From the NCBI GenBank assembly GCA_017303895.1, contig JAFLBF010000008.1, positions 8,813-72,812 of the forward strand: DNA of 64,000 nt, written 5' to 3'. The position numbers were made by a program, and so were the translations under genes. This DNA is from Bacteroidota bacterium (GTDB lineage: Bacteria; Bacteroidota; Bacteroidia; 2-12-FULL-35-15). Below the pieces are notes generated by a model. It did not search any database, was not told the DNA's origin, and saw only the letters and a list, made by a program, of their open reading frames with translations. Shown piece after piece: positions 38,934 through 61,845 of this stretch. Position 1 is the first letter of the stretch; each line of letters starts with the position of its first letter.

Positions 38934-39752
38934 TTAGACAATTCGTTTTAGCAAACGAAGTTGATGAGAATAATCGCGTTTCTCATGATTAAAGATCCCG
39001 TGATGATCAAAACCATCGATCCTCACTTTTCCGGATGCGTGAATGATCTGATTGTTATCCATCACAATTCCCACATGAATAATTCGCCCTTCTTCATTAT
39101 CAAAGAAGGCAAGATCACCAGGTTCGGCCTCTTCTACAAAACTTAAGGTTTCTCCTTGTTCAGCTTGCTGGTAAGCATCTCTAAACAATTTAATTCCATT
39201 CAATTTGTAAACGGATTGAGTAAACCCGCTACAATCAATACCAAAAGGGGATTTCCCTCCCCATAGATAAGGACTGTTCAAATAAAGCATGGCCGTTTCC
39301 AGAATACCGCTCTTGGTAAATGGTAAATAACCATTAATAAAAGCACCATCATAGACATAGGATGAATTCTCTACCACACACTCGCCATCATCAAAATTGG
39401 GAAGAGTAGCGCCAATGGTAATTGGGAAATGTTGCTTGGTTTTTGAATCCGAAATGATCTGGATCAATTCATTACAGTGATAGGGTTCCACTGTATTTAT
39501 TATATCGAAGGTATGCTGCTGAATTGGTAAAAATTGTTTTTTATCGATCCAGCATTCGTAACCGTCAAACGTGATCTTTATGTGCACCCAACTGCCTTGT
39601 ATTTCAATAATTTCAAATGTTTCCCCAAACAACAATTGAGTAACCATCTCACTTCTATCAGATGGCTCCTTTCGACAAGGGACAACACTTAAATTACAGA
39701 TTCCGTACATATCAGGCCGAATATATAAATGAGGTATGAGAAATGAGTTCAT
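38934..39752 (-). CDS. NlpC/P60 (C40) family peptidase with N-terminal SH3b-like domain
   Basis: 272 aa. Catalytic Cys block YLWGGKSPFGIDCSGFTQSVY and downstream His (IIHVGIV). Confidence 0.75.
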   Translation of the reverse strand: MNSFLIPHLYIRPDMYGICNLSVVPCRKEPSDRSEMVTQLLFGETFEIIEIQGSWVHIKITFDGYECWIDKKQFLPIQQHTFDIINTVEPYHCNELIQIISDSKTKQHFPITIGATLPNFDDGECVVENSSYVYDGAFINGYLPFTKSGILETAMLYLNSPYLWGGKSPFGIDCSGFTQSVYKLNGIKLFRDAYQQAEQGETLSFVEEAEPGDLAFFDNEEGRIIHVGIVMDNNQIIHASGKVRIDGFDHHGIFNHEKRDYSHQLRLLKRIV

Positions 39753-43209: not shown

Positions 43210-43247
43210 GAAAGAATAACTTAAGCAGTTATTCTTTCTTTTTTCTT
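43209..43247 (+). terminator. Putative intrinsic terminator between convergent genes
   Basis: AGAAAGAATAAC (43209-43220), loop TTAAGCA, GTTATTCTTTCT (43228-43239), followed by TTTTTTCTTG. The hairpin spans both stop codons (PgpH-like stop 43207-09; minus-strand gene stop 43221-23). Confidence 0.5.
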
Positions 43248-45908
43248 GAATCCAAAGTCTAATATACGGTCAATAAAATCGTATGGTTTATAGCCATTAA
43301 TGGCAGTTTGGTGAAAAATACATGTAGCGGGTGTCATCCCCGGTAAAGAATTCACTTCCACAAATATCACTTCTACTCTATTTACATCGTAAATACGAAC
43401 AAAAGCGTCAATTCTGCAATAACCATTCACAAAAAGCACTTTTGCAGCATCACCCAATGTTTTCTTAACGATATCAGAAATTTTCTGACGTTCGATTGGA
43501 TCAGCCGAATAACGGGCTGGAGTAATATTTTGGCCTTGTCCCGCTAAAAACTTCTCTTCTAAAGACAATACTTCCCCTTCACTTAATGCCTCTGACGCTT
43601 CAAATACCTCATAACTCACTTCTCCTTTCGCATTATATGTTGTGAGCATTCCTCCTGTTATTTCCAGGAAATGTTTGGAATCGCGTTTGCTGATCAACTC
43701 CTCTACCAGGATCACCACTTTTTGAGGAAACTCTTCTTTATCCTTAATATGCAATAGATTAGCCGCTAATTCGTCCAATGCCTCTTGTTTTCTAAAGATC
43801 AAAGTAGCAAATGCATCAAACTCTTCGGGTGTTTTTATTTTTTTTACAGCAGAAGAACAACCATCATCAACCGGTTTGGCAATAAATGGATAGTGTATTT
43901 TTTCTTTAATGATCGACAACACAGCTGATTTATCTTTTTTCCAATCGCCCTCAGTAACCAACATGTGTTCAGCCACCAAAAAGCCATTTTGTTTTAAGAT
44001 CTCATTTGTACGGTATTTATCGATGGTGATCTGCGAACTTTCTACTCCTGAACCATTATAGGGCAATCCAACTCTTTCCAGCTGTGCCTGAACAGCACCA
44101 TCCTCACCCGGCCTGCCGTGCAATGCAATAAACACAGCGTCAACGGTATTTGCTAACTCTTCATACGTAAAGCGTTTCGGCTTAGCCAAATTATCTGAAT
44201 TACAATATTTTTGAGTAATGGAAGACGCTTCATGAATGATCTCTTTTACCAATTCATGTATCTTATAATGATCAATTTTCTCTTTTATATCATCCGCATT
44301 ATCTTTTAACAAAATATTGATTGGGATCTGATATAGAATATGTTCATCTGCACTACCTGTCAAGAAAACAGGAATAGGCTCATATTTAGTAGAAGAAGCT
44401 AGTTTTTCATATATATTTCTTCCACTCTCAACTGAAATATGTCGCTCAGAAGAATAGCCACCTAAAATTACAGCCACTTTTGTTTTATTCGTTGTCGCCT
44501 CCTGATCCTTTTGAATAGAAGCATCCAAAGCCGCCAATAGTTTACTTGTTTGTAAAGAATGACTATTCGCCTTTATCCGTTGTGCAATAGATGTTCGAAT
44601 AATGTACGTGAGGAACTGAGAAGGATTTAAACCAATTTCTGCTGCCTGATGAAAGAAAAACGAGGAGGGCATCATCCCGGAAGTTGTATTAGGATCATTC
44701 AAGAAGATCTTTCCATCTTTCGATAGAAAACCATCAATCCGTGCGTACACATCGAAATTAAGGGCATAAAATAAACGTTCACACTCCTTACGAATAGATT
44801 GGATCTGATCATTTGGCAGATCGATCGGTGTGATCTTACGTGATAAACCCGGTAAATACTTTGATCGATAATCGAACAGCTCTTTGCCTTTTCGTATTTC
44901 GGTTGGTGGTAATGCAATCGCTTTCCCATCCTCCATTTGTGCTACTATGCAGGAGAATTCTTTCCCTTCAATAAACCCTTCGATAAGAACGGTTGACTCG
45001 CCATCTATGGCTTCCAGCACAACTCCTTCTTTCTCCGTTTTAAAACAGTCATCTAAAAATGTGATCAGGTCAGCAGGATGATATACCGTTCTTCCATTTA
45101 CCATAACAGGCATTCCTATTCCTTCACGAATATCAGCCAGCACACGAATAAAAGCATTTTTTTCCTGAGCTGTCTTTTTAAGCCATTCAGACGCATCTAT
45201 CCATTTAGTAAAAAAAGCTTTCTCTACAGCCTCCATAAACGAATGATCATCGTCTTTTGAAAGAATAGTAACTCCTATGGAAGAGCCCTGGTTGGCAGGT
45301 TTTATTACCAGTGGAAAACCGATCTCCTTTTTGGCATTTTCAAAAACATTTTTACAATTTCCCTTGATATAATCATCGCGTTTGATGGTCATAAATTTCG
45401 GACTGTTAAATCCGGCATCAACCATCATTCTTTTTTGAATACTTTTATCAATACCAATTGCAGAAGGCAATATGCCGGAGCCGGAATAAGGAATGCCAAG
45501 ATATTCAAACATCCCTTGGATCTTTCCATCTTCACCATAAGGGCCATGCAAACATAAAAATGCGAAATCAAAATGACACTTAAGTTCCTCCGGATGTAAA
45601 CGTTTTCCGATCTTATTGATCATTTGAACTTGCGCTTCAGCAGAAACATCACCAATTTGTTCTGCATACACCTGAAAATCACCTTCTTTTGAAGGAATAA
45701 ATTCCACAGGAGGATAGAAATCCCTGATGCTTCCTTTGTAAATAAACTCCCAGTTCAACAGCACAAAATTGCCAAAGCTATCCACAAAAACAGGGACCGC
45801 CTCAAAAAGAGATTTATTAAGATTATCGTAAACAGTTCTTCCTCCAGCGAATGAGATCTCGCGTTCTTTAGAAAAACCTCCGAAAATGATACCGATTTTG
45901 ATTTTCAT
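43221..45908 (-). CDS. Tandem-duplicated D-alanine-D-alanine ligase-like protein (two complete Ddl_N + ATP-grasp modules in one 895-aa polypeptide)
   Basis: Module 1 begins MKIKIGIIFGGFSKEREISFAGGRTV...FLCLHGPYGEDGKIQGMFEYLGIPYSGSG...IKPANQGSSIGV. Module 2 begins at aa about 458: KTKVAVILGGYSSERHISVESGRNIY...FIALHGRPGEDGAVQAQLERVGLPYNGSG...AKPVDDGCSSAV. Both carry the Ddl N-domain and ATP-grasp signature order. Confidence 0.6.
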   Translation of the reverse strand: MKIKIGIIFGGFSKEREISFAGGRTVYDNLNKSLFEAVPVFVDSFGNFVLLNWEFIYKGSIRDFYPPVEFIPSKEGDFQVYAEQIGDVSAEAQVQMINKIGKRLHPEELKCHFDFAFLCLHGPYGEDGKIQGMFEYLGIPYSGSGILPSAIGIDKSIQKRMMVDAGFNSPKFMTIKRDDYIKGNCKNVFENAKKEIGFPLVIKPANQGSSIGVTILSKDDDHSFMEAVEKAFFTKWIDASEWLKKTAQEKNAFIRVLADIREGIGMPVMVNGRTVYHPADLITFLDDCFKTEKEGVVLEAIDGESTVLIEGFIEGKEFSCIVAQMEDGKAIALPPTEIRKGKELFDYRSKYLPGLSRKITPIDLPNDQIQSIRKECERLFYALNFDVYARIDGFLSKDGKIFLNDPNTTSGMMPSSFFFHQAAEIGLNPSQFLTYIIRTSIAQRIKANSHSLQTSKLLAALDASIQKDQEATTNKTKVAVILGGYSSERHISVESGRNIYEKLASSTKYEPIPVFLTGSADEHILYQIPINILLKDNADDIKEKIDHYKIHELVKEIIHEASSITQKYCNSDNLAKPKRFTYEELANTVDAVFIALHGRPGEDGAVQAQLERVGLPYNGSGVESSQITIDKYRTNEILKQNGFLVAEHMLVTEGDWKKDKSAVLSIIKEKIHYPFIAKPVDDGCSSAVKKIKTPEEFDAFATLIFRKQEALDELAANLLHIKDKEEFPQKVVILVEELISKRDSKHFLEITGGMLTTYNAKGEVSYEVFEASEALSEGEVLSLEEKFLAGQGQNITPARYSADPIERQKISDIVKKTLGDAAKVLFVNGYCRIDAFVRIYDVNRVEVIFVEVNSLPGMTPATCIFHQTAINGYKPYDFIDRILDFGFKKKERITA

Positions 45909-46056: not shown

Positions 46057-46893
46057 TTGGTCTGCTATACATCTTATATGAATTTAAATTTCCTTAGAGC
46101 AATTCCTTTATTAAGAAGATTCAGGTATAATTACCTGAGAAATTGGATCGAACAGCATCCAAAGTCGGATGTTGTGTCGCACATAAGAGGTGGCTTAAAA
46201 ATGAAATTAAGAGTTGAAGATTGGGTTCAACAAAACATCTTTTTACATGGCTATTATGAAGAAAATGAGACGAACTACTTACTTAACAGAAGTAAAAATG
46301 TAAATACATTCATTGACATTGGAGCGAATGTTGGCTATTTCAGCCTTTTAACATCTGCAAACATTTGCAAAAACAACGGAAAGATCTTTGCTTTCGAGCC
46401 TATTACCCGAACCTTTGAACGTCTTCAAGAGAATATTTATCTGAACAATATGACTTGTATCAACAATTATAGAATTGCTATTTCTGATTCTAATACCAAT
46501 CTTGAAATTAATATCGGCAATGATCAAAATTGGGGAATGTCAAGCATCAACAAACATGACCAATTATCCTCACTGTCGGAAACTGTGAAATGTCAGACCT
46601 TAGACTCTTTCTGTGAAGAGCATCATATTACAGCAATCGACCTTGTAAAGATCGATGTGGAAGGTGCTGAATTTAAAGTATTAAAGGGAATGGAAAATGT
46701 TATACAATTGTACAAACCTGAGATTCTAATTGAAATAATTGACACCCACCTTAATCAACAAGGAGTAAACTCTTCCGACATTTTCAATTACTTATGGGGT
46801 AAAGGATATAGATCGTATGAGATCGGTAAAAGGGGAACTCTAAAAGAGATCACAAAAACAGGAACCTATAGAGGGTTGGTTTGCTTTAAGTAG
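46057..46893 (+). CDS. FkbM-family methyltransferase
   Basis: 278 aa (the start could be the ATG at 46078). FkbM signature FIDIGANVGYFSL...IDLVKIDVEGAEFKVLKG. Confidence 0.7.
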   Translation: MVCYTSYMNLNFLRAIPLLRRFRYNYLRNWIEQHPKSDVVSHIRGGLKMKLRVEDWVQQNIFLHGYYEENETNYLLNRSKNVNTFIDIGANVGYFSLLTSANICKNNGKIFAFEPITRTFERLQENIYLNNMTCINNYRIAISDSNTNLEINIGNDQNWGMSSINKHDQLSSLSETVKCQTLDSFCEEHHITAIDLVKIDVEGAEFKVLKGMENVIQLYKPEILIEIIDTHLNQQGVNSSDIFNYLWGKGYRSYEIGKRGTLKEITKTGTYRGLVCFK

Positions 46894-47462
46894 GTGATCA
46901 GCTTATTAACAGCAATTGCCCTGTGAGAAACTAAATTCTTTTCTTCAATGCTAAGCTCTGCAAACGTTTTATCATAACCATCGGGCACAAATATCGGATC
47001 ATATCCAAAACCTTTTTCTCCTATCTTATTATGCAAGATCCTGCCATTCACAATCCCTTCAAACAAAACCTCTTTGTTATCAATTACCAATGAAATAACA
47101 GTCTTAAATCTAGCTTTCCTGTTTTCCACTCCACTTAATTCGGCTAACACTTTATTCATATTGGCATTCGCATCTTTAGCATCACCGGCATATCTGGCAG
47201 ATAATACCCCAGGTCTTCCATCCAAAGCTTCGATTTCAAGACCAGTATCATCAGCAAAACAATTGACCTGATACTTTTTATGTACATAAAATGCTTTCTG
47301 AGAAGCATTCCCTTCAATTGTAGCTTGTGTTTCAGGAATTTCTTCTGCACAATGAATATCTGATAGACTACGAATTTTAATATTGTCCGGTATCAAATTT
47401 TGAATTTCTTTCGCCTTGTTAGGGTTGGCTGTAGCAAATACTAATTCCATGTTATCGACCAA
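46866..47462 (-). CDS. Non-canonical purine NTP pyrophosphatase (RdgB/HAM1, dITP/XTP)
   Basis: 198 aa. LVFATANPNKAKEI, FADDTGLEIEALDGRPGV, GFGYDPIF. Confidence 0.8.
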   Translation of the reverse strand: MVDNMELVFATANPNKAKEIQNLIPDNIKIRSLSDIHCAEEIPETQATIEGNASQKAFYVHKKYQVNCFADDTGLEIEALDGRPGVLSARYAGDAKDANANMNKVLAELSGVENRKARFKTVISLVIDNKEVLFEGIVNGRILHNKIGEKGFGYDPIFVPDGYDKTFAELSIEEKNLVSHRAIAVNKLITYLKQTNPL

Positions 47463-49699: not shown

Positions 49700-50317
49700 A
49701 TGATGCAAAAGATATTGACACGTTTAAAATATTCATTTTTTAACAAGCAGCCGTCAAGTATTTTTACCAAGGATCTTATTTCCGGTGAGAATTTTCAGAT
49801 AGGAGAATATACCTATGGAAAACCCATTGTACTTTATCAAGAATCCGGTGCATCACTCATTATTGGCAAATTTTGTTCATTCGCAGAAAACACCACCATA
49901 TTTCTGGGAGGTAATCATCGAACAGATTGGGTATCAACCTATCCCTTTCGAGAAATATTTACCCAAGAATCATCATTAAATACAATAAGTGGTCACCCTT
50001 CAACAAATGGTGATGTAATTATTAAAAACGATGTCTGGATAGGAAGAAATGCAACGATCCTTTCAGGAGTAAAAATAGAAAACGGTGCTGTTATCGGGGC
50101 TGGATCTTTAGTTACTAAAGACATTGGCCCATATGAAATTTGGGGCGGCAACCCAGCTAAACTAATTCGAAAACGCTTTGACGAAGAGACAATAAAAGCA
50201 TTGCTTGATATAAAATGGTGGGATTGGGAATACAACAAAATAATAAGCCATGCGCCATCTTTGTGTAACAACAATATTTTTGATTTTATAAGCCAACATC
50301 GTTCAACAAATAAATGA
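49700..50317 (+). CDS. Hexapeptide-repeat O-acetyltransferase (CatB/XAT-like sugar O-acetyltransferase)
   Basis: 205 aa. Left-handed beta-helix repeats (IGKFCSFAENTTIFLGGNHRTDWVSTYPF; VWIGRNATILSGVKIENGAVIGAGSLV). Confidence 0.75.
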   Translation: MMQKILTRLKYSFFNKQPSSIFTKDLISGENFQIGEYTYGKPIVLYQESGASLIIGKFCSFAENTTIFLGGNHRTDWVSTYPFREIFTQESSLNTISGHPSTNGDVIIKNDVWIGRNATILSGVKIENGAVIGAGSLVTKDIGPYEIWGGNPAKLIRKRFDEETIKALLDIKWWDWEYNKIISHAPSLCNNNIFDFISQHRSTNK

Positions 50318-50323
50318 GATAAA

Positions 50324-51082
50324 ATGCTGAGGGCTATTAATAATATAAGGAGAAAATTATATATAGGGAGCTTAATAGAAAGCGACCCTGTATTTCTTTA
50401 TGCGGAGAAGCTAACTAAATTAGAAGAAAAGAAAACGATCCTACGAACAGATGTTTTAAACTATTTATTATCACAACAAAAAAAAGCAGCTCCAATTTAC
50501 CTTGAGATAGGTGTTAGGAATCCTAACGAAAATTTCAATAAGATCATATGCACAACTAAATATAGTGTCGATCCAGGTATAGAATACAAACCCAATCCTG
50601 TAGATTTTAAAATGACAAGTGATGAGTTTTTTTTAAAATTAAAAGAGGGCAAAATATTAAATCCAGACATTAAATTCAACATCGTATTTATTGATGGGTT
50701 GCACACTGCTGAACAAGTTGAAAAAGATGTTGAGAACGCCCTCACATTCTTGGCAGAAGATGGATACTTAGTATTACATGATTGCAATCCGCCTACAGAA
50801 TATCATGCACGTGAGGATCATTCTTTCAACCTATCTCCAGCGAGAAATAATTGGAATGGATCGGTTTGGAAGACATTTTATAAACTCCGCTTGAACCCAG
50901 AAATTTCATGTTGCTGTATTGACAGTGATTGGGGAGTTGGTGTCATCAGCAAAAAAAAACATTTTGACCATTTAAAAGAAAATTTTAATCCATATTTCGA
51001 ATATCGAATTTTCAACAACAGAAGAAAAGACAGTTTGAATCTGATTGATTTTGAAGAGTTTAAAAAAATAATACGAGAATAA
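50324..51082 (+). CDS. Class I SAM-dependent methyltransferase-like (Methyltransf_24 / TylF-CmcI-like)
   Basis: 252 aa. YLEIGVRNPNENF (motif I-like) and IVFIDGLHTAEQVEKDVENAL (FIDGDH-type block). Confidence 0.45.
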   Translation: MLRAINNIRRKLYIGSLIESDPVFLYAEKLTKLEEKKTILRTDVLNYLLSQQKKAAPIYLEIGVRNPNENFNKIICTTKYSVDPGIEYKPNPVDFKMTSDEFFLKLKEGKILNPDIKFNIVFIDGLHTAEQVEKDVENALTFLAEDGYLVLHDCNPPTEYHAREDHSFNLSPARNNWNGSVWKTFYKLRLNPEISCCCIDSDWGVGVISKKKHFDHLKENFNPYFEYRIFNNRRKDSLNLIDFEEFKKIIRE

Positions 51083-51084
51083 TC

Positions 51085-51972
51085 ATGGCATCTATAACAA
51101 TTGGGATGCCTGTGTACAACGATAAAAATTTTATAGAAGCATCCATCAAAAGTATTTTAGCTCAAACATTTACTGATTTTAATTTAATCATTGCCGATGA
51201 CTGCTCTTCAGATGGAAGTGCAGATATTTGTTTAAAATATGCTGCAATAGACTCCAGAATAACATACATTAAACATAAAAACAATATTGGTATATCACAA
51301 AACATGAAATTCCTGCTCATGCAGGCTAGAACCGACTTTTTTATGTGGGCGGCTGACGATGATCTATGGAGTACCGATTATGTTGAAACGCTATTGAATA
51401 ACTTAAAACAATCGAAAACAGGAATTGTATCTTTTTGCACTTTTGCTACAATAGATGAGGCAAACAACATCATCAAAGATCAAATCGATTTTGATTACCA
51501 TAACGAAAATGTAAGGAAAAGATTGACAGGATTTATCCGTAATGCCAATGATGCATTTGGATACGGAATTTTCAGAACAGATCAAATTCAGAATGTTGAA
51601 TTTCCTATTTGGTGGTGGCCCAACAGAAAATGTGCGTACAATAACATATACCCAACATTATGCTATTACTTAGCTAAAGGAGACTATATCCATTGTGCCG
51701 GTGTACCTCGTTTTTTTAACAGAATAAAATCTACCAATAATATAAATCATATACTTCCATACAAAAAAGATGGAATTAAGGAACTTTTAGCATACATACT
51801 ACGGAAAATGAATCTGGTTTGTTTTTCATTTTTACTAATATATAAAACAGGCAAATATGGTTTAGCAATAATAACATTACCTACATTGCTCTACTATTGG
51901 TTTTTAGCTCCATCACTACAAAAGATCAAACATTTTTTCAAGAAGGCTAAAGGAGATAAAACCTCCTATTAA
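51085..51972 (+). CDS. Family 2 glycosyltransferase
   Basis: 295 aa. ITIGMPVYNDKNFIEASIKSILAQTFTDFNLIIADDCSSDGS. DDD (WAADDDLW). Confidence 0.7.
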   Translation: MASITIGMPVYNDKNFIEASIKSILAQTFTDFNLIIADDCSSDGSADICLKYAAIDSRITYIKHKNNIGISQNMKFLLMQARTDFFMWAADDDLWSTDYVETLLNNLKQSKTGIVSFCTFATIDEANNIIKDQIDFDYHNENVRKRLTGFIRNANDAFGYGIFRTDQIQNVEFPIWWWPNRKCAYNNIYPTLCYYLAKGDYIHCAGVPRFFNRIKSTNNINHILPYKKDGIKELLAYILRKMNLVCFSFLLIYKTGKYGLAIITLPTLLYYWFLAPSLQKIKHFFKKAKGDKTSY

Positions 51973-51996
51973 AAAAGATTATTTATAATAAACAAT

Positions 51997-53340
51997 TTGT
52001 CAGTAAATAGAAACATATTATACACATTCTTAACGCAAGGTCCAACCATTTTTCTTGGGCTGTTTATTAATTTCTTTATAACAAGAATTTTAATGGCAGA
52101 AGGAAAAGGGATCTATTCCATTTTTCAATCCGACATTGACTTACTAACTCTCTTCCTTGGCTTTACAATTTCATCAGCAATTGTTTTTTATGTATCTAAT
52201 AACAAAATAAATCTTGAAAAATTGGTTGGGATCGGGATATCATTCATTGCTATTGGCGCACTTATTCTCACATTTTTATTTTTTATAATCCCTTTATTTT
52301 TTAACAACAATTTTTTATTCCCGAAAAATCATAACAGTCTATTTCACCATATATACCTTTTGATAACTTTTTGTGTGGTAATGAGCATAACAGTCTTATC
52401 ATCTGTCTTTCAAGGTAAATCGCAATTTAAAGTTCTAAACTTCATTACAATTTTCAATAGCATTATTAATTTAATTGTATATGGCATTCTCTTCTACTTA
52501 AAAGAGTTTAAAAACTATAATATTAGCATCAACTTCATTCTAATAGTAACAGCCTCCGTACACACATTAAACTTGACACTATGGCTGCTTTTCTATAAAA
52601 AATACATAAACATTGTACCTCGTTTTAATTTCAGTTACGAGTCGGAGATAAAGCCACTCTTTATTTTCATCACTATTGGTCACATTGCCCACATGGTTAA
52701 TTTCCTGACTTACAAAATGGATTTTTGGATAGTAGAACATTATAACGGATCGAAAGAGCTCGGTTATTATTCACAAGCGGTAGGCTTTTCACAAATGTTT
52801 TGGTCAATTACAAATCCAATAATTATTGTCTTAACCCCCTATTTAACTTCAAAGACAAACGAAAATGCTATTGAATCATTTAAATTCTTCTCAAGAGTAA
52901 ATTTTACGCTGATCTTCATACTTGTACTAATTGCTTTTAGTATATGCGGCTTCATATTCCCTCTTTATGGACAAGAATTTGAACATTCAGTAATTCCATT
53001 TCGAATATTGTCACTATCAATAATAATGTCATGCATCACAAAAATATTTGCCGTGTATATTTATGCAAACAATAAAATTGTATACAATTTAATTGCTGCT
53101 TCTGTTGCGTTTGTTACCACTCTGGCTGCTGACCTTATTCTAATACCCAGATATGGTATGATGGGAGCAAGTATTGCAACAACGATATCTTATACAACAT
53201 TAACTGCAATGGTCTCCTATTTTCTTTTTTTTAAAATGAAAGTTGACCATAAAAATTTATTTTTTTTAAAAACATCCGATTATTCGGCAATTTTTAACCG
53301 TTTAAAAACAAGTTTAGTTCAATCAAAAAATGAAAAATAA
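51997..53340 (+). CDS. Oligosaccharide flippase (Wzx / polysaccharide biosynthesis protein family)
   Basis: 447 aa with about 12-14 TM helices, in a glycan locus. Confidence 0.65.
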   Translation: MSVNRNILYTFLTQGPTIFLGLFINFFITRILMAEGKGIYSIFQSDIDLLTLFLGFTISSAIVFYVSNNKINLEKLVGIGISFIAIGALILTFLFFIIPLFFNNNFLFPKNHNSLFHHIYLLITFCVVMSITVLSSVFQGKSQFKVLNFITIFNSIINLIVYGILFYLKEFKNYNISINFILIVTASVHTLNLTLWLLFYKKYINIVPRFNFSYESEIKPLFIFITIGHIAHMVNFLTYKMDFWIVEHYNGSKELGYYSQAVGFSQMFWSITNPIIIVLTPYLTSKTNENAIESFKFFSRVNFTLIFILVLIAFSICGFIFPLYGQEFEHSVIPFRILSLSIIMSCITKIFAVYIYANNKIVYNLIAASVAFVTTLAADLILIPRYGMMGASIATTISYTTLTAMVSYFLFFKMKVDHKNLFFLKTSDYSAIFNRLKTSLVQSKNEK

Positions 53341-54052
53341 GAAAAACATCTCTGATTTTTATGATGCTTACTCTGAGCAACAACAAAAAATGTGGCACAA
53401 TGAACGCCATTATTTTTTGATTGAGCAATTAAAGAAACTAGGACTCAAGAAAAACTCTATAATCCTAGAGATTGGATGTGGAATAGGCACGGTATCAAAT
53501 CTTATTGTACCTCTTATTCCGAAAGGAAAATTATATGCTACAGATATTAGTCCGAAAAGCATAGAAATTGCGAAAGAGCACAACAAAAAATATTCGAATG
53601 CTATATTTTTTACAGCAGATTCAACAGAAAATCCTATCCCCGATCATAATTATGATTTTATTGTTCTTTTTGATGTATTGGAACATATTGAAAAAAATGA
53701 TCGCATACAATTTCTAGAGAACATTTCGAAGTTAATGAATGAAAAAACACTTTTATTGATAAATGTTCCGGCACCTAACGCACATATACATGCAATTGAA
53801 AAAACACCTGAACTTATGCAGATTATAGAAGTCCCCGTTTTCATTGAAGATATAGTTCCCATATTAAAAAAATGCAAATTGGAAATACGGTCTTTCTTTA
53901 CATATGATATGTGGCAGAAAGATGAATATCAGTTTTATCTCATTGAAAAACATAAAGAGTATGTTTTTCACAAAACACAACCACACAATAAGCATAATCC
54001 TCAATCTATTAAAAATAGAATCAAAAAGAAAATAAACAACATTACATCATAG
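53330..54052 (+). CDS. Class I SAM-dependent methyltransferase
   Basis: 240 aa. Motif I ILEIGCGIGTVSN. Motif II-like FIVLFDVLEHI. Confidence 0.65.
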   Translation: MKNKKNISDFYDAYSEQQQKMWHNERHYFLIEQLKKLGLKKNSIILEIGCGIGTVSNLIVPLIPKGKLYATDISPKSIEIAKEHNKKYSNAIFFTADSTENPIPDHNYDFIVLFDVLEHIEKNDRIQFLENISKLMNEKTLLLINVPAPNAHIHAIEKTPELMQIIEVPVFIEDIVPILKKCKLEIRSFFTYDMWQKDEYQFYLIEKHKEYVFHKTQPHNKHNPQSIKNRIKKKINNITS

Positions 54053-54057
54053 ACACT

Positions 54058-55224
54058 ATGAAAATTGCTTTTTTCGCAGATATAAACGATAATCATAACC
54101 AAAAGTGGTTTAAGATTCTTGCCCAAAAGCATGAGTTATTTGTATTTACAGAAAAAAGTAATCAATTAAAAAATAAAAATATTTTTCTTAATTCCACGGA
54201 AAACATCAGGATATACCCTATTCTGGAAGACAGGTATTCAATAAAAAACTTATTCTTTAAGCATCCTTTAATTAACGAAATAAACCTCCTTTTACTTACA
54301 AATGAAATAGAATTTGTACATAGTATCTATGCGGTCCCCTATTCATTTTGGGCATTCGACACATGTATCAATAAACATATCATTACAACTTACGGGTCTG
54401 ATATGCTTGTTGACTATAACCAGATATTCAAAAAACCTGTATCGCTAAAGAATGGCATCTCTTTTTATTTATTAAAAACAAGATTAGAAAGGATATTCAA
54501 CAACGCAGCCTTTATAACCTCTACATCTTTCGAGCAACAAAAAGTAATAAAAACTTTCACAAAAGACCATAAAAAACTTTCTATCATCAGAACTGGAGTT
54601 GATTGCAATTTTTTTATTGAAAATATTGAAAAGTATAGTAATAAAAAAAATCATCTGACAATTTTATCGAACAGAGCAATGAGACCCTTGTATAATATTG
54701 ATCTCATTGTAGATGCATTCAAACTTTTAACAGATAGCAACCCAAAAATGTCAGGAACCCAACTGGTTCTTTTGAATTACTATACAGATGAAGAATATTA
54801 CCGATCAATTTTGAATAAAATAAAGCAATATAATTTACAAAAAAACATAACAATACTTACGGATCTTAAATTTCTCGATCTAATAGAACAGTATGCATGT
54901 GCGGATCTAGTAATAATGATCCCATCCTCTGATGGAACACCTGTTTCCGGAGTAGAAACATTACTATCAAAAAAACCATTAATTTTAGGGGACTTAAACT
55001 ATGATATTGATCTGTTTAATAAAGATACAACCTGGAGAACATCAAATTTTAGTATTGAATCCGTTTGTAATGCAATAGAAGAGGTTTTATCGACCTCAAA
55101 AGATGTAATAGATAGTAAAACAGAAAAAGGACGTACGCAAGCATTAAACAACGCAGACGTATATAAAGAAATAAAAAAAATAGAACATTTGTATCATCAA
55201 ATTAAGTCAAATAATGGAATATAG
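54058..55224 (+). CDS. Glycosyltransferase (GT-B, family 4-like)
   Basis: 388 aa. C-terminal GT-B block DLVIMIPSSDGTPVSGVETLLSKKPLILGD. Confidence 0.55.
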   Translation: MKIAFFADINDNHNQKWFKILAQKHELFVFTEKSNQLKNKNIFLNSTENIRIYPILEDRYSIKNLFFKHPLINEINLLLLTNEIEFVHSIYAVPYSFWAFDTCINKHIITTYGSDMLVDYNQIFKKPVSLKNGISFYLLKTRLERIFNNAAFITSTSFEQQKVIKTFTKDHKKLSIIRTGVDCNFFIENIEKYSNKKNHLTILSNRAMRPLYNIDLIVDAFKLLTDSNPKMSGTQLVLLNYYTDEEYYRSILNKIKQYNLQKNITILTDLKFLDLIEQYACADLVIMIPSSDGTPVSGVETLLSKKPLILGDLNYDIDLFNKDTTWRTSNFSIESVCNAIEEVLSTSKDVIDSKTEKGRTQALNNADVYKEIKKIEHLYHQIKSNNGI

Positions 55225-56344
55225 GGTTTGTAATAGATGTGTATTAGATACGAATGACGACCCTGAAATAACGTTCAATAAAGATGGGGTTTGCAGCTAT
55301 TGCCTTGAATACGATGCAACTATTCAAGAAAATAAACTGAATGATAGGGCACAGACAGAAATTAAACTTAATGAGCTATTAACAACAATAAAATCTAAAG
55401 GGCAAAAAAATAAATACGATTGTATTATAGGTGTTAGTGGTGGTGTTGACAGTACTTATCTGGTATTAAAAGCCAAAGAATTGGGATTGCGTCCTCTTAT
55501 TGTTCACTATGACAATGGCTGGGACTCAGAATTAGCGGTCATGAATATCGAGAACCTAATTAAAAAACTTGACCTTGACCTAATAACATATGTTAATGAC
55601 TGGAACGAATTCAGAAAAATACAGTTGGCATTTTTTAAAGCATCCGTAATTGATATTGAACTTATTACAGATCAGGCAATTTTAGCAACGATATATAAAA
55701 TTGCTCAAAAGTATAAGATCAAGTACATTCTATATGGATCGAACTTATCAACCGAAGCAATTCTTCCAAAAAACTGGTATCATTGGAAAATAGATGTATT
55801 GAACATACTAGCTATACATAAATTATTCAGTAACAAAAAACTAATCTCCTATCCTACTTTAAGTTTTTTTAAACATATATATGTAACAAGAATATTAAAG
55901 ATAAAGAGCATTAATCTCTTGAATTATTTAAGCTATTCAAAAGATGAGGCTAAAAGAACGATCATAGAGAAATTAGACTGGAAAGACTACGGAGGTAAAC
56001 ACCATGAGTCAATATTTACTAGATTTTATCAATCTTACATTCTTCCGCATAAATTTAATGTTGATAAAAGGAAAGCACATCTTTCCACTCTTATTTGCTC
56101 ATCACAGATAACTCGATCAGAAGCCTTAGAAGAGTTAAAAAAGCCCATATATGACCAGGAAAAATTTAAAGATGACTACGAGTATGTATTAAAAAAAATG
56201 GGTTTGACAGAAAAAGAATTCACAGAATTAATGAATTTGCCGATAAAAAAACATACGGATTACCCGTCATATTTAACAAAACACTACAAGTACCAATTGA
56301 AAGTATCACAATTTTTAAAACCCATAACCCAATTATTTAAATAG
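55214..56344 (+). CDS. N-acetyl-sugar amidotransferase (WbpG/LPS-biosynthesis PP-loop ATPase family)
   Basis: 376 aa. N-terminal Cys cluster (CNRCVLD...CSYC). PP-loop IGVSGGVDSTY. Confidence 0.75.
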   Translation: MEYRVCNRCVLDTNDDPEITFNKDGVCSYCLEYDATIQENKLNDRAQTEIKLNELLTTIKSKGQKNKYDCIIGVSGGVDSTYLVLKAKELGLRPLIVHYDNGWDSELAVMNIENLIKKLDLDLITYVNDWNEFRKIQLAFFKASVIDIELITDQAILATIYKIAQKYKIKYILYGSNLSTEAILPKNWYHWKIDVLNILAIHKLFSNKKLISYPTLSFFKHIYVTRILKIKSINLLNYLSYSKDEAKRTIIEKLDWKDYGGKHHESIFTRFYQSYILPHKFNVDKRKAHLSTLICSSQITRSEALEELKKPIYDQEKFKDDYEYVLKKMGLTEKEFTELMNLPIKKHTDYPSYLTKHYKYQLKVSQFLKPITQLFK

Positions 56345-56348
56345 CAGT

Positions 56349-56963
56349 ATGATAACAATTATAGACTATGGAATAGGGAATGTTGGTTCTATAAAGAACA
56401 TGCTAAAGAAAGTGGGATCTAAATCTCAAATTACCAGCGATTTAAATGAAATAAAAAAGGCAGATAAATTGATACTTCCTGGAGTTGGTTCCTTTGATTT
56501 TGGGATGACACAACTAAAAAACAGTAACTTGATAAGTATATTAAATCAAAAAGTATTAGTTGAAAAGAAACCCATTTTAGGAATTTGTTTGGGTATGCAG
56601 TTACTAACAAAAAGCAGTGAGGAAGGAAAAGAAGCTGGGTTAGGATGGGTAGATGCCAGGACATTAAAATTCAAATTTGAAGACGACATCAACTTAAAAG
56701 TTCCACACATGGGGTGGAATGATATACAGATAAAAAAAGACAGTAAATTATTAAGAGACCTTCCAATTCCGTCTAAATTTTATTTTGTTCATAGTTACTA
56801 TGTAAAATGTGAAGATGTATCTAATACCATTCTATCATCAACTTATGGTCATGAATTTACATGTGGGATTGAAAAAGAGAACATCTTGGGCGTACAATTT
56901 CATCCAGAGAAAAGTCATAAATTTGGCATGAAAATATTAAAAAATTTTTCGGAGCTATACTAA
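56349..56963 (+). CDS. HisH-like glutamine amidotransferase (imidazole-glycerol-phosphate-synthase subunit paralog, O-antigen-type)
   Basis: 204 aa. MITIIDYGIGNVGSI, GICLGMQLL (catalytic Cys), FHPEKS. Confidence 0.8.
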   Translation: MITIIDYGIGNVGSIKNMLKKVGSKSQITSDLNEIKKADKLILPGVGSFDFGMTQLKNSNLISILNQKVLVEKKPILGICLGMQLLTKSSEEGKEAGLGWVDARTLKFKFEDDINLKVPHMGWNDIQIKKDSKLLRDLPIPSKFYFVHSYYVKCEDVSNTILSSTYGHEFTCGIEKENILGVQFHPEKSHKFGMKILKNFSELY

Positions 56964-56970
56964 ATAAAGA

Positions 56971-58908
56971 ATGGAACAATTCAGAATTATTCCTACGTTG
57001 TTGATTGAAAATGATTATTTAGTCAAGAGCGAAAAGTTCAAGAACAACCGCTATATTGGTGATCCTATAAATGCGATTAAAATATTAAATGAAAAAGAAA
57101 TTGACGAATTAGTCGTTTTAGACATTTCTGCATCAAAGACAAATTCAGAGCCTAATTATAAATTAATAGAAGAGCTTGCGTCAGAATGTTTTATGCCACT
57201 TTCGTATGGAGGTGGAATAACCTCTATTGAATGTGCACAAAAGCTATTTCGTAGCGGGGTTGAAAAAATAATAATAAATAGTGCATGTTTTTCCAACCCT
57301 AATCTAATAGCAGAGATCACTCAAAAATTCGGTAATCAAAGTGTCACTATATCTATTGATGTCAAAAAAAATATTTGGGGTTCATACTATGTATATAGTC
57401 ACACCCAAAGAGATTCAAAACAATACGACCCGGTTAGCTTTGCAATTGAAATGGAAAAATTGGGAGCGGGAGAGATCATTTTGAATTCTGTTGATAACGA
57501 TGGTACATACAAAGGATATGATACCGAACTGATTCGTTTGGTATCACTTGCTGTTTCTATTCCTGTAATTGCGCTAGGAGGAGCAGGGAATATCAATGAC
57601 TTTAAAAAGGCTATACAAGCTGGTGCATCTGCAGTTGCTGCAGGGAGTTTATTTTGTTTCTATGGTCGCCTTAAAGCAGTTTTGATAAATTACCCTTCAC
57701 AAGAAGAGATAAAAAGAATATTCTCAGATACCCAATCGACAAAGAAAAACCTAAATATCCTTCACGTAACAGCCTGGTATCCAAATAAAAAAGACAGCCA
57801 CAAAGCATTATTCATAAAGGAACATTTTGAATCAATAGACTTAATATGCAACAATCATTTACTACATATCGATACCAATCCTAATGAAAAAAACTTTGTT
57901 AACGAGAAATTTAAATTATCCGAAAATGAAGAAACTATAATTTTTAAATTCCCATTTAAAATATGGTTCCTTGTTGAACTTATATCGTTCTTTATTTTAT
58001 TAAGATATTCTATAAAGAATAAAGTACAAACAAGATATGATATTGTAAATTTTCATATTGCCTATCCTTTAGGAGTTTATCTTCATATATATCAAAAACT
58101 ATTCAAAAAGCCAATTATCATATCTGAACATTGGACAGCCTATCATTATGATTTTTATATAAAAAAGCAAAAAAGAGGGATCAACAGAATCAAAAATATT
58201 TTCAAGAGAGAGATTCCTGTAATAGTAGTTTCTGAGGCCTTAGCAAATGATATAAAAAAATTTTCCGGAAATGATCACACGAGATTCCATATATTAAACA
58301 ATATTGTCGACTCTACTATATTTAATTGCAAGAACGAAAGCCCCCCTGAGCATCCCACATTCTTCATGCTAAATATGTGGTCGAAAATAAAGCAACCGTT
58401 TGTTGGTATAGATGCATTCGAGTTATTTGTAGAAAAACACCCGGAAGCCAAACTTAAAATTGGCGGATTCGGACCTATTTGGAAAGATATTGAAGATTAT
58501 GTAAAGTTAAAAAAATTAGAGCATTCCATAGAACTGCTGGGGAGAATGAATAAAAATCAAATAGCAGAGCATTTAAATAGTTGCACAGCATTATTACACA
58601 CTTCAAAATATGAAACTTTTTCAGTAATTTCGGCAGAAGCAGCAAGCTGTGGCGCTCCGGTTATTGCAATGAATCTTGGTGGAATACCGAGCTTTATAAA
58701 TCAAACAAATGGTTATTTACACAATAATGATACTATTGAAGGTTGGTTAAAAGGAATGGAATATGTGTATGAGAACAAAAATACGTTTGACAGAAAGGCT
58801 ATTGCATTAGAGGCCAATAGAATATTCTCAAAACAAAATGTAGGAAAACGATATTATAAAATTTTAAAACAAGAGTTTAGAACATACTTTGAAAATAAAA
58901 GACAATAG
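56971..58908 (+). CDS. HisF-like cyclase (acetamidino-modification family) fused to a C-terminal GT-B family 4-like glycosyltransferase
   Basis: 645 aa. aa 1-about 250 HisF fold (RIIPTLLIENDYLVKSEKF...GDPINAIK...IDELVVLDISAS...GGGI...LGGAG). aa about 260-645 GT4-like (LNILHVTAWYP..., ...ETFSVISAEAASCGAPVIAMNLGGIPSFINQTNGYL). Confidence 0.7.
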   Translation: MEQFRIIPTLLIENDYLVKSEKFKNNRYIGDPINAIKILNEKEIDELVVLDISASKTNSEPNYKLIEELASECFMPLSYGGGITSIECAQKLFRSGVEKIIINSACFSNPNLIAEITQKFGNQSVTISIDVKKNIWGSYYVYSHTQRDSKQYDPVSFAIEMEKLGAGEIILNSVDNDGTYKGYDTELIRLVSLAVSIPVIALGGAGNINDFKKAIQAGASAVAAGSLFCFYGRLKAVLINYPSQEEIKRIFSDTQSTKKNLNILHVTAWYPNKKDSHKALFIKEHFESIDLICNNHLLHIDTNPNEKNFVNEKFKLSENEETIIFKFPFKIWFLVELISFFILLRYSIKNKVQTRYDIVNFHIAYPLGVYLHIYQKLFKKPIIISEHWTAYHYDFYIKKQKRGINRIKNIFKREIPVIVVSEALANDIKKFSGNDHTRFHILNNIVDSTIFNCKNESPPEHPTFFMLNMWSKIKQPFVGIDAFELFVEKHPEAKLKIGGFGPIWKDIEDYVKLKKLEHSIELLGRMNKNQIAEHLNSCTALLHTSKYETFSVISAEAASCGAPVIAMNLGGIPSFINQTNGYLHNNDTIEGWLKGMEYVYENKNTFDRKAIALEANRIFSKQNVGKRYYKILKQEFRTYFENKRQ

Positions 58909-59996
58909 TGCCTAGTAATAAAAACATAATAATTATTTCTAACGAACCCTGGGGAGATGTCTGGTATTCCAAGCACAACTATGCTTATGAATTATCCAAA
59001 AAAAACAAAGTTATCTTTCTTAATCCACCTAAAAAGTGGAAGCTTGGTAACTTATTTAAAAAAATAGAAATTTCTGCAATAAGCGATAATTTATTTCAAC
59101 TAACATATACAAACATATTACCATCTGTTAATACAATCTTCTTTAAATTAAACAACTTACTTGTCTCTCTCAAACTTAAACGTTTTTTTAAGGAAAATAA
59201 TTTTGCAGATTATATTTGTTGGACATTTGATCCCTACAGGTTATATTCTCCCCAAAAACTCGGTGCGAGTAAAAGTCTGTTCCACATTGTAGATAACTAT
59301 CAATTCAATCACCGTGGAGAAAAAGAAACATGTAACAATAGTGATTACTTTGTTTGTGTATCAGAAAATATTGCAAAGAATTACAAATCATTTAACAAAA
59401 GAATGCTTGTTATTCCTCACGCTCTTTCATCAGACGAGTTTATTTCCACTCAAAGACCCACAGAAATCCCCGAGAAACAATATGCATTGTATATAGGTAA
59501 TATTGACAAAAGATTAGACTACGATCAAATCGAAAGAATTATCATTGCTTTTCCCACTATAGAATTTGTATTTATAGGAAAACTTCATTTCGCTCCTAAT
59601 AATATTGCAGCAGATGCTATCTTCAACAAAAAAAAATATTCGAATGTTAAATATCTAGGGATAAAGAACTTTAAAGAACTTAAGAATTATATAAAACATG
59701 CGAAATTCTGTTTTGCCTGGATGGATGAAAAATTTCATGGGAACAGAATTGCACACCATAAAATATTCCAATACCTTGCATTTGGGAAACCTGTATTCTG
59801 TTCTGTTTTTTCTGATTACATTCCAATTAAAAGCTATCTTTATATGGAGGATGATACAGACAATATGATTCAAATAATAGATAATTATATGAAAAATGGA
59901 GAAGATCCACATTTAGTAGACCAAAGGATCAATATGGCCAAAGAGCATACTTTTGAAAAAGCATTGGCAAAAATTGACTTATTTATCAATGAATAG
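58908..59996 (+). CDS. Glycosyltransferase-like hypothetical protein (GT-B-like)
   Basis: 362 aa. Start overlaps the upstream stop (TAGTGCCTAG region; ATG at 58908). I recognise no diagnostic motif. Embedded in the GT-rich locus. Confidence 0.4.
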   Translation: MPSNKNIIIISNEPWGDVWYSKHNYAYELSKKNKVIFLNPPKKWKLGNLFKKIEISAISDNLFQLTYTNILPSVNTIFFKLNNLLVSLKLKRFFKENNFADYICWTFDPYRLYSPQKLGASKSLFHIVDNYQFNHRGEKETCNNSDYFVCVSENIAKNYKSFNKRMLVIPHALSSDEFISTQRPTEIPEKQYALYIGNIDKRLDYDQIERIIIAFPTIEFVFIGKLHFAPNNIAADAIFNKKKYSNVKYLGIKNFKELKNYIKHAKFCFAWMDEKFHGNRIAHHKIFQYLAFGKPVFCSVFSDYIPIKSYLYMEDDTDNMIQIIDNYMKNGEDPHLVDQRINMAKEHTFEKALAKIDLFINE

Positions 59997-61841: not shown

Positions 61842-61845
61842 ATAT

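Follow-up and report, generated by a model that had tools for sequence, protein, structure and literature searches.

A fused two-module ligase gene

We analysed a 64-kb stretch of DNA, referred to as the window, and found on its minus strand a fused two-module Ddl-family open reading frame (43221..45908 (-)), identified from the list of ORFs and from Pfam and NCBIfam matches. It has an intact frame and an ATG start and encodes 895 amino acids followed by a stop codon, and all peptide strings that an earlier note on this DNA had quoted are found within its translation. Across the full-length protein, Pfam reports Dala_Dala_lig_N twice and Dala_Dala_lig_C as four stretches spread over both modules. 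When each half is scanned alone, residues 1-472 match the N domain with 90.8 bits and the C domain with 124.3 bits, and residues 473-895 match them with 84.3 and 69.8 bits, respectively, all above the gathering scores. Both domains are thus found in each half, which bears out the claim of the earlier note that two complete Ddl modules lie in one ORF. Aligned to each other, the halves are 26% identical over 450 columns (E = 6e-32), within the 25-30% that had been estimated by eye.

On the basis of alignment to E. coli DdlB and of the Pfam matches to each half alone, the N-type module occupies 44574..45908 (-) (residues 1-445) and the C-type module 43224..44483 (-) (residues 476-895). They are joined by a linker (44484..44573 (-), residues about 446-475) that is weakly conserved and predicted to be helical, with helices at 429-447 and 452-474 in the AlphaFold2 model. 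A split-gene version of the family breaks at this same linker, where the protein P0177 of locus L003 ends. Besides this ORF, tblastn found no second Ddl-like sequence in the 64-kb window. The neighbouring genes encode a 7TM-HD receptor, a thiolase, an FkbM methyltransferase, a glycosyltransferase, an epimerase and a Ham1/RdgB-like NTP pyrophosphatase (46866..47462 (-); Pfam Ham1p_like, 1.2e-64), the latter being a neighbour and not a part of the enzyme. The window gene is an ordinary housekeeping-type gene and its generic annotation is correct.

Active-site residues of the two modules

We compared both modules with E. coli DdlB, using a reference sequence whose numbering agrees with the match coordinates of PDB 1iov. 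DdlB residues K97, K144, E180, E187, K215, R255, D257, E270 and N272 have counterparts in both halves, the sole change among these ATP, Mg and transition-state residues being an Asp for E270 in the N half, and they are invariant or nearly so among relatives down to about 30% identity. The N module carries the canonical Ddl set (E15, H121, E126, K155, K203, S209, E310, E317, K350, Y351, R390, D392, D405, N407, S416 and F417), which is invariant in families A1 and A2 and kept in about 40 of 43 representatives of the class of about 900 aa and in 26-27 of 27 representatives of the class of about 800 aa. The C module carries the ATP, Mg and transition-state set as E488, H597, E602, K631, K678, E736, E749, K786, R832, D834, E851 and N853.

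The two sites differ in three positions, with Cys684, Phe787 and Thr862 of the C module replacing Ser150, Tyr216 and Ser281 of DdlB. These substitutions are fixed across phyla, whereas the N module retains the DdlB residues Ser, Tyr and Ser, and the C-module signature string EHEKKCEEKFRDENT is identical in relatives as distant as 31% identity. Accordingly, the Glu15-Ser150-Tyr216 triad reads E15, S209 and Y351 in the N half and E488, C684 and F787 in the C half. Of the catalytic residues that the earlier note had singled out for comparison, those for ATP, Mg and the transition state are present in both halves and the triad is complete in the N half, but the C half is without Ser150 and Tyr216.

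Mean identity in the class of about 900 aa is 46.6% for the N half and 46.1% for the C half, compared to 14% for the linker, and this equal conservation indicates that both halves are under selection. We therefore reject a degenerate pseudo-domain for the window protein, as both halves are conserved with full residue sets; the earlier note had allowed that one half might lack the ATP-binding or catalytic residues, and neither half is degenerate in this way. Judged from these residues, each module is a complete, self-contained Ddl (ATP-grasp ligase) active site.

Insertions and predicted structure

Compared to the 306-aa E. coli DdlB, both halves contain long insertions, as had been claimed, and these lie at matching places. 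In the N module, the first insertion (45573..45785 (-), residues about 42-112, a gap relative to DdlB) lies in the N-terminal domain, contains invariant D63 and F64 and is modelled at a pLDDT of about 77-95. The second (45009..45212 (-), residues 233-300, a 68-residue gap relative to DdlB) is modelled by AlphaFold2 as a folded alpha/beta sub-domain before the central ATP-grasp domain, with helices and strands over 234-288 and a pLDDT of 81-94. The first insertion of the C module (44145..44366 (-), residues about 515-588) is helical, with helices over 530-574, and matches the first N-module insertion in position; it holds a KDNADD motif, and in A2 D540 is invariant and 535-539 are nearly so. 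The second C-module insertion (43722..43796 (-), residues about 705-729), whose approximate boundaries come from the spacing between the AF motif and E736 relative to DdlB, has a lower pLDDT of 56-77.

The AlphaFold2 model of the 895-aa chain has a mean pLDDT of 84.6 and a pTM of 0.85, and pLDDT falls below 50 in two segments only, the omega (lid) loops. The N-module loop (44838..44891 (-), residues 340-357) contains K350 and Y351 and aligns to the K215/Y216 loop of DdlB; the C-module loop (43524..43586 (-), residues 775-795, also below 50) contains K786 and F787 within the family-invariant lid motif LSLEEKF. The top 50 Foldseek matches consist solely of Ddl or Van ligase chains (target-normalised TM-scores 0.74-0.92); solved Ddl chains, 2dln and 1iow among them, reach 0.8-0.92. 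The entry 1iow is the solved structure of the E. coli DdlB Y216F variant. In the model, the three-domain Ddl fold is present. The pTM of 0.85 is consistent with a defined packing of the two halves and is the one measure that suggests they may pack as a pseudo-dimer. As the matching solved chains reach at most 386 aa, there is no solved structure of a double Ddl among them.

Distribution, split and degenerate forms

A database protein of equal length is 98% identical to the window protein, and matches extend to more than 120 protein clusters of about 900 aa. Relatives are encoded in at least 577 species genomes, mostly from Bacteroidota and including the cultured genera Pontibacter, Hymenobacter and Rufibacter. 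A class of shorter members, about 800 aa in length, is found in Peregrinibacteria and Bdellovibrionota, and small Peregrinibacteria genomes carry members of the family. Furthermore, all of the 80 best genome loci, isolate genomes included, carry the fused frame, with tblastn matches that run continuously over residues 1-895. In a neighbour-joining tree, which is indicative only as it uses a single outgroup and has 62% bootstrap, the N modules fall into one clade and the C modules into another, across classes that share only about 31% identity. Together, the number of clusters and species genomes and the separate clades agree with the earlier view that this is an old fusion and not an assembly duplication.

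The modules are also found apart. N and C modules occur as adjacent separate genes in one lineage (L003), and lone single-module genes occur in the AT-rich reduced genomes of L006, L096 and Cardinium, suggesting from gene content that the modules can work unlinked. Intact lone C-type genes persist in Cardinium genomes of 0.9-1.3 Mb, and an 887-kb Cardinium genome, which is said to make peptidoglycan, retains an intact lone C-type module as a pair with a PASTA gene. Apart from this lone module, no Ddl homologue was visible to us in Cardinium, and the published Cardinium peptidoglycan gene table lists murA-murG and mraY and no ddl. For these reasons, the existence of a separate canonical ddl is an unsafe assumption. 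No family locus that we fetched contains a second Ddl within ±8 kb.

The orthologue at the corresponding position in Haliscomenobacter is retained and fused to PASTA even though almost none of its catalytic residues survive, and degenerate but retained orthologues of Haliscomenobacter-like lineages have the Ddl-Ddl-TM-PASTA form. With catalysis lost, this lineage must have another Ddl, and the retention of the degenerate orthologue implies that the protein has some role beyond catalysis.

Genomic context of the family

Across the family we found a recurring arrangement, Ham1 - ddl - PASTA - rluD. In 26 of 69 related genome loci, a Ham1 gene on the same strand precedes ddl by no more than 900 bp, and in 43 of 71 loci the next gene downstream is a PASTA gene. 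The gene order of the modules is always N - C - PASTA, and Ddl-Ddl-TM-PASTA triple fusions occur, in which the two modules are fused to the downstream PASTA-domain protein. Neither in the window nor at the loci from Peregrinibacteria and Bdellovibrionota was the gene seen in a mur/fts cluster, and partners typical of van operons (a dehydrogenase or racemase, a D,D-dipeptidase, a two-component system; vanH- or vanX-like genes) are absent among the window neighbours. In the literature that we searched, we found nothing on a bacterial double Ddl or on a link between ddl and PASTA.

Comparison with known ligases

Canonical Ddl (E. coli DdlB and DdlA; PDB 2dln and 3i12) has the same fold, with target-normalised TM-scores of up to 0.92, and shares its ATP-grasp catalytic residues with both halves of the window protein and its Glu-Ser-Tyr triad with the N half. 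It is a single module, whereas the window protein has two, each with insertions of about 60-70 residues. Relative to the canonical enzyme, Glu270 is replaced by Asp and Leu282 by Phe in the N type, and the C type has the Cys, Phe and Thr described above. Scored against the NCBIfam Ddl models, the N half alone reaches 227-232 bits (best 231.8) for cut-offs of 243-262, and the C half alone 150-158 bits for a cut-off of 245.65. The whole protein scores 378.8 with TIGR01205, above the cut-off of 245.65 only because the two half scores add up.

In lactic acid bacteria, a Phe or Tyr at the lid position decides between depsipeptide and dipeptide, Phe going with D-Ala-D-lactate (PMC5996685). The C module shares this Phe with the Phe-type depsipeptide ligases (Leuconostoc LmDdl2, Lactobacillus Ddl), while the N half has Tyr351. 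In contrast to the Van and LmDdl2-type ligases, the C module has in addition Cys for Ser150, there is no van operon context, and the host of the window is Gram-negative. The whole protein scores at best 270.9 for a VanG cut-off of 495 and 218.4 for a D_ala_D_lac cut-off of 550, with the halves lower. Being far under these cut-offs and without van context, a Van-type resistance ligase (D-Ala-D-Lac or D-Ala-D-Ser) was rejected. The MurC-Ddl of Chlamydia (NCBIfam PRK14573) likewise joins Ddl to a second peptidoglycan ligase in one chain, but the partner there is a Mur ligase and in the window protein it is a second Ddl. We rejected such a MurC-Ddl fusion on the PRK14573 score (178.5 bits for a cut-off of 1015), on the absence of any match to a Mur ligase Pfam domain in the window protein and on gene context.

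The closest parallel is found in plants. The earlier note knew of no characterised double Ddl, which is out of date, as plant DDL is described as a fusion of two DDLs (PMC9954125) and this two-module protein is included among the functionally characterised D-Ala-D-Ala ligases, EC 6.3.2.4 (PMC7432710). As in the window protein, plant DDL (Arabidopsis At3g08840, Physcomitrella PpDdl BAE45860, rice BAF22630) has two complete Ddl units in one polypeptide (architecture from PMC9954125). A moss knockout has a plastid-division defect, and the roles of the plant halves are debated, given that the second half of DDL is still expressed in Arabidopsis T-DNA lines (PMC9954125). The plant gene is nuclear-encoded, and representative plant pathway proteins have predicted chloroplast transit peptides (PMC4815162), whereas the window protein begins directly at the first Ddl strand. 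Published work places the origin of plant DDL in Chlamydiae/CFB or FCB-group bacteria (PMC3493653; PMC9434261), and the CFB/FCB group is where the bacterial family of the window protein abounds.

Function of the fused protein

The gene encodes an intact representative of a large family whose members consist of two Ddl paralogues, long diverged and joined head to tail. We propose that the product is probably a single-chain heterodimer that supplies D-Ala-D-Ala to MurF and serves as the Ddl of its lineage. Architecture, residue conservation, fold and distribution are directly supported. Ordinary Ddl is a homodimer, and the two halves would be packed in a similar way. Each module would bind ATP-Mg and phosphorylate D-Ala to D-alanyl phosphate, which a second D-amino (or D-hydroxy) acid would then attack. 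Both sites would turn over, and the product would be D-Ala-D-Ala, which the single-chain heterodimer, presumably the main or only cellular Ddl, would pass to MurF as this Bacteroidota lineage builds its peptidoglycan. In favour of this reading we count the Pfam matches and fold of both halves, the kept residues, the equal conservation, the confident placement of the halves in the model, the modules that occur unlinked, the Cardinium genomes, the plant counterpart and the PASTA context, together with the conserved cell-wall context of the family as a whole (Ham1 - ddl - PASTA - rluD). Counted against it are the scores of the halves, a C site without Ser150 and Tyr216 and the dead Haliscomenobacter orthologue. 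Processive synthesis of a dipeptide and then a tripeptide, as the earlier note had envisaged, is unsupported, since the sites are self-contained and the modules also occur as separate or lone genes.

More tentatively, the N and C modules may form an obligate, functionally differentiated pair, in which the C site differs in specificity or regulation and the always-adjacent gene couples the enzyme to a protein that spans the membrane once and carries PASTA domains in the periplasm, the same fusion being perhaps the direct ancestor of plant DDL. This possibility, to which we give a minor share of our confidence, fits the N - C - PASTA order, the Ddl-Ddl-TM-PASTA fusions, the retained dead fusions and the pair of C-type module and PASTA gene in Cardinium. 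If true, the supply of D-Ala-D-X precursor would be tied to periplasmic peptidoglycan sensing in many Bacteroidota.

A less likely alternative to the proposed function is that the sites divide the labour and yield two precursors, the N site making D-Ala-D-Ala and the C site, with its Cys, Phe and Thr, making D-Ala-D-lactate or another D-Ala-D-X dipeptide or depsipeptide. The contrast between Cys684/Phe787/Thr862 and the Ser, Tyr and Ser of the N module, fixed across phyla, consists of distinct pockets that have long been maintained, suggesting different jobs. However, the C half stays far under all NCBIfam cut-offs for D-Ala-D-Lac and D-Ala-D-Ser ligases, for example with 101 bits for a cut-off of 550 and 111 bits for a cut-off of 495, and the window neighbours include no vanH- or vanX-like genes. 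Moreover, E. coli DdlB Y216F reportedly still makes D-Ala-D-Ala, and Cardinium, which keeps MurF, seems dependent on its lone C-type module, a point in favour of the C type being able to provide the usual dipeptide.

It is improbable, in our judgement, that a canonical ddl elsewhere makes D-Ala-D-Ala while the fused protein acts in another pathway or in regulation, for example in a membrane-associated complex with the PASTA protein. The degenerate Ddl-Ddl-TM-PASTA forms of Haliscomenobacter-like lineages, with their non-catalytic role and another Ddl, point that way, as do the half scores under the curated Ddl cut-offs and the lack of a mur/fts cluster at the loci named above. Opposed to this are the strong conservation of the full catalytic set in both halves and in both length classes, the presence of the family in small Peregrinibacteria genomes, the Cardinium gene table without ddl and a plant counterpart that is a D-Ala-D-Ala ligase.

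We consider it very unlikely that one half, most plausibly C, binds ATP or substrate without turnover, serving the N half structurally or allosterically. The lower scores of the C half with all Ddl models, its missing Ser-Tyr hydrogen-bond triad and the one clade with fully degenerate versions would fit such a role, but its phosphoryl-transfer and Mg ligands are all invariant, it is as conserved as the N half, and intact lone C-type genes are kept in the reduced Cardinium genomes. Finally, that sequencing or assembly error merged adjacent ddl genes or collapsed a duplication has a negligible chance and is ruled out in practice, for although truly split N and C genes are known in L003, the fused frame of about 895 aa recurs across the independent clusters and all of the best loci, and the halves are just 26% identical.

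Significance

Ddl performs an essential step of cell-wall synthesis; D-cycloserine targets it, and vancomycin resistance involves its reprogramming. A fused two-site form of this enzyme seems to serve much of Bacteroidota as well as Peregrinibacteria and Bdellovibrionota. The family is very large and already annotated, and its plant counterpart is a known cell-wall enzyme; the point of interest is the differing make-up of the two active sites, and we found no bacterial assay of the fixed Cys/Phe second site in the literature searched. With cultured hosts available, among them Pontibacter and Hymenobacter, the question of the second site would be tractable, and answers on the bacterial two-site Ddl would bear on the roles of the plant DDL halves too. 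As a separate observation on annotation, JGI wrongly labels many members of the family 'UDP-N-acetylmuramate--alanine ligase'.

An intact ligase with two modules

An uninterrupted ORF at 43221-45908 (minus strand) codes for 895 residues, and every peptide string quoted from it in the earlier note is found in its translation. Pfam places two Dala_Dala_lig_N domains on the protein together with Dala_Dala_lig_C matches covering both halves. When the halves are separated at residue 472, each alone exceeds the gathering scores of both domains, which bears out the claim of two complete Ddl modules in one ORF. The halves are 26% identical over 450 aligned columns (E = 6e-32), within the range of about 25-30% that had been judged by eye. 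Each half alone falls short of the Ddl cut-offs curated by NCBIfam, and only their summed scores carry the whole protein over them, a caveat for its naming. Using E. coli DdlB and the window protein as tblastn queries, we found no second Ddl-like sequence in the 64-kb window. The observation on this ORF is confirmed as first described.

An AlphaFold2 model built on a 93-sequence alignment has a mean pLDDT of 84.6 and a pTM of 0.85, with pLDDT below 50 only in the two lid (omega) loops (residues 340-357 and 775-795). Foldseek against the PDB returned Ddl/Van ligase chains only, with target-normalised TM-scores up to 0.92 (best 1iow and 2dln). All PDB sequence matches are of 386 residues or fewer; no two-module Ddl has therefore been solved.

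A widespread family with two module types

A database protein of the same length is 98% identical, and more than 120 further clusters (76-86% identity, all about 895-920 aa), named 'D-alanine--D-alanine ligase' by NCBI, come from Bacteroidota/Bacteroidia MAGs. When 50%-identity representatives were searched exhaustively, 723 matched at E <= 1e-30, and the best 150 of these include three length classes: about 900 aa (43 representatives, the class to which the window protein belongs, about 40-60% identity to it), about 800 aa (27, about 31-36%, the named matches being Peregrinibacteria/Patescibacteria, Bdellovibrionota and 'Deltaproteobacteria', frequently labelled 'hypothetical protein') and about 1200 aa (11, 28-56%, in which the double Ddl is extended by PASTA domains and a transmembrane helix). 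The distribution search for long Ddl homologues that had been proposed, run on one genome per GTDB species, found relatives in at least 577 genomes, the best 80 of which include the cultured Pontibacter (nine species or strains), Nibribacter, Rufibacter, Hymenobacter metallicola and Rhodocytophaga. The gene is thus widespread and conserved by vertical descent, not a peculiarity of the window.

Some members depart from these descriptions. Proteins of about 570-630 aa recur (P0193, 569 aa; P0178, 629 aa), with one full N-type module and a tail, about 130-180 residues long at the C-terminus, that matches the start of the C module and has no second Pfam Ddl match; this tail could be a truncated second module. 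P0261, a 987-aa high-GC protein of the 800-aa class, has about 200 extra, acetyltransferase-like N-terminal residues before its double Ddl. Many members bear the JGI label 'UDP-N-acetylmuramate--alanine ligase', which was probably carried over from MurC-Ddl fusions, since no Mur ligase domain is present. Bacteroidota-like double Ddls (65-71% identity) also occur in MAGs labelled Saccharibacteria, Akkermansia and Synechococcus (loci L017, L033 and L039), contigs that are probably mis-binned or mislabelled.

We aligned each half separately to DdlB, with 17 of 17 literature residues on the expected letters and a numbering consistent with the PDB 1iov match coordinates. The N half retains E15, H63, K97, K144, S150, E180, E187, K215, Y216, R255, D257, N272, G276 and S281, while Asp stands at the E270 position and Phe at that of L282. 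The C half retains E15, H63, K97, K144, K215, R255, D257, E270, N272 and G276, fills the E180 and E187 positions with E736 and E749, and replaces S150, Y216, S281 and L282 by Cys684, Phe787, Thr862 and Cys863. Both halves thus have full sets of ATP-binding and catalytic residues, and neither is the degenerate module that the earlier note had considered. The long insertions noticed relative to a canonical Ddl lie at corresponding sites in both halves, the first of about 60-70 residues in the N-terminal domain and the second, ahead of the central ATP-grasp domain, with a length of 68 residues (N half) or about 25 (C half).

Throughout the 900-aa and 800-aa classes, the residues at fifteen key positions are EHEKKSEEKYRDDNS (N module) and EHEKKCEEKFRDENT (C module), unchanged even in proteins with only 31% overall identity. 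Compared with the window protein, N and C modules average 46.6% and 46.1% identity, and the linker 14%. Even so, the modules are of distinct types that differ consistently in the substrate pocket, Ser/Tyr/Ser-Phe versus Cys/Phe/Thr-Cys or Val.

When the separated modules are placed in a neighbour-joining tree, each of the two types forms a clade of its own (31 of 50 bootstraps, one outgroup), and both clades divide alike into the 800-aa and 900-aa classes. This repeated split places the duplication before the two classes with modest support, in agreement with the proposal of an old fusion. Split, lone-module and triple-fusion variants are nested within the 900-aa class and are secondary. They comprise adjacent separate N-type and C-type genes followed by a PASTA gene (L003, 8001-11671), lone N types in very AT-rich genomes, adjoining mnmA at 21% GC (L006, 5613-6911) and ftsZ at 29% GC (L096, 4222-5493), lone C types in Cardinium, Amoebophilus and Amoebophilaceae, and Ddl-Ddl-TM-PASTA triple fusions (P0124-P0126; L093, 6310-10044). 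A lone C type with Ser replacing Cys was also seen on a 31% GC contig (L095, 3526-4707).

PASTA coupling and putative retained pseudoenzymes

At 43 of 71 assessable loci, a single-pass PASTA-domain protein is encoded on the same strand within 900 bp downstream. Ham1 is found upstream at 26 of 69 loci, and rluD further downstream at 15 of 55. The window retains the Ham1 neighbour (46866-47462, minus strand); downstream of its ddl ORF is a convergent 7TM-HD receptor gene, and there is no PASTA gene anywhere in the 64 kb.

In some Saprospiraceae-like lineages, double Ddl, transmembrane helix and downstream PASTA domains form one protein of about 1200-1285 aa. Nearly every catalytic residue is gone from both Ddl halves of the Haliscomenobacter fusion (P0228/P0274; L092, 10001-13618), and the loss recurs, again in both halves, in about six further clusters at 50% identity. 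The fusion occupies a syntenic position equivalent to that of an intact double Ddl and PASTA pair (L094, 10001-13607), with An_peroxidase, Reprolysin/Por_Secre_tail, Rhodanese and SPOR as shared markers. The Haliscomenobacter-type fusion looks like a retained pseudoenzyme, implying that the lineage has a further Ddl and that the scaffold serves a role outside catalysis.

Predicted function and the plant precedent

The simplest reading is that the window protein would be the D-Ala-D-Ala ligase of its lineage, its single chain predicted to join covalently the two partners that usually form a Ddl dimer, with both active sites at work. The complete catalytic sets, equally selected in both halves, the high pTM, the viable split and lone-module forms, the presence of the family in small Peregrinibacteria genomes and the plant precedent all argue for this reading.

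Cardinium, with an 887-kb genome, is reported to be capable of generating peptidoglycan (PMC3486910), and its published gene table has murA-murG, mraY and PBPs, with no ddl and no racemase. Cardinium hertigii cEper1 (HE983995.1; L097, 8001-10051) carries a lone C-type Ddl of 439 aa with intact catalytic residues, annotated 'putative uncharacterized protein' and followed 56 bp downstream by a PASTA gene. This may be the Ddl that has gone unrecognised in Cardinium and Amoebophilus. The Cardinium findings suggest that the Cys/Phe type may be able to provide MurF with the dipeptide by itself.

A purely canonical role is disfavoured on two counts: in lactic acid bacteria, Phe replacing this Tyr accompanies D-Ala-D-lactate synthesis (PMC5996685), and the Haliscomenobacter orthologue is catalytically degenerate yet kept as a PASTA fusion. 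For processive synthesis of a dipeptide and then a tripeptide, as proposed earlier, we found nothing in support.

The earlier note, which knew of no characterised double Ddl, is out of date on this point. In plants (Arabidopsis, Physcomitrella, rice), DDL is described as two putative DDL enzymes fused into one, a form that occurs across the whole plant lineage (PMC9954125); it is catalogued among characterised enzymes under EC 6.3.2.4 and has a moss knockout with a phenotype (PMC7432710). It is reported as closest to FCB-group homologues (PMC9434261), and its origin has been ascribed to transfer from Chlamydiae/CFB bacteria (PMC3493653). The plant and bacterial fusions may share ancestry. Our literature searches returned no paper on a bacterial two-module Ddl and none on a ddl-PASTA link. 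The feature is real, but the window protein is an ordinary representative of its large family, which carries generic annotations and an architecture already known from plants; the remaining interest lies in the fixed N-/C-type differentiation, the recurrent PASTA coupling and the dead but retained fusions, none of them peculiar to the window.

Other features of the window

Directly upstream of ddl, a divergent FkbM-type methyltransferase gene (PF05050; 46057-46893, plus strand) overlaps Ham1 by 28 bp. A gene of this type is also directly upstream of the double Ddl, on the same strand, in a distant 68% GC relative (L094, 8986-9936), and it is possibly a recurrent neighbour. An NlpC/P60 peptidase with SH3 domains, a dipeptidyl-peptidase VI-like cell-wall hydrolase, is encoded 3.5 kb from ddl (38934-39752, minus strand). 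The region from about 50000 to 64000 has 30-34% GC, versus 35-42% elsewhere, and a run of plus-strand ORFs that follows glycosyltransferase, epimerase, hexapeptide acyltransferase and methyltransferase genes; it resembles a cluster of genes for surface polysaccharide.
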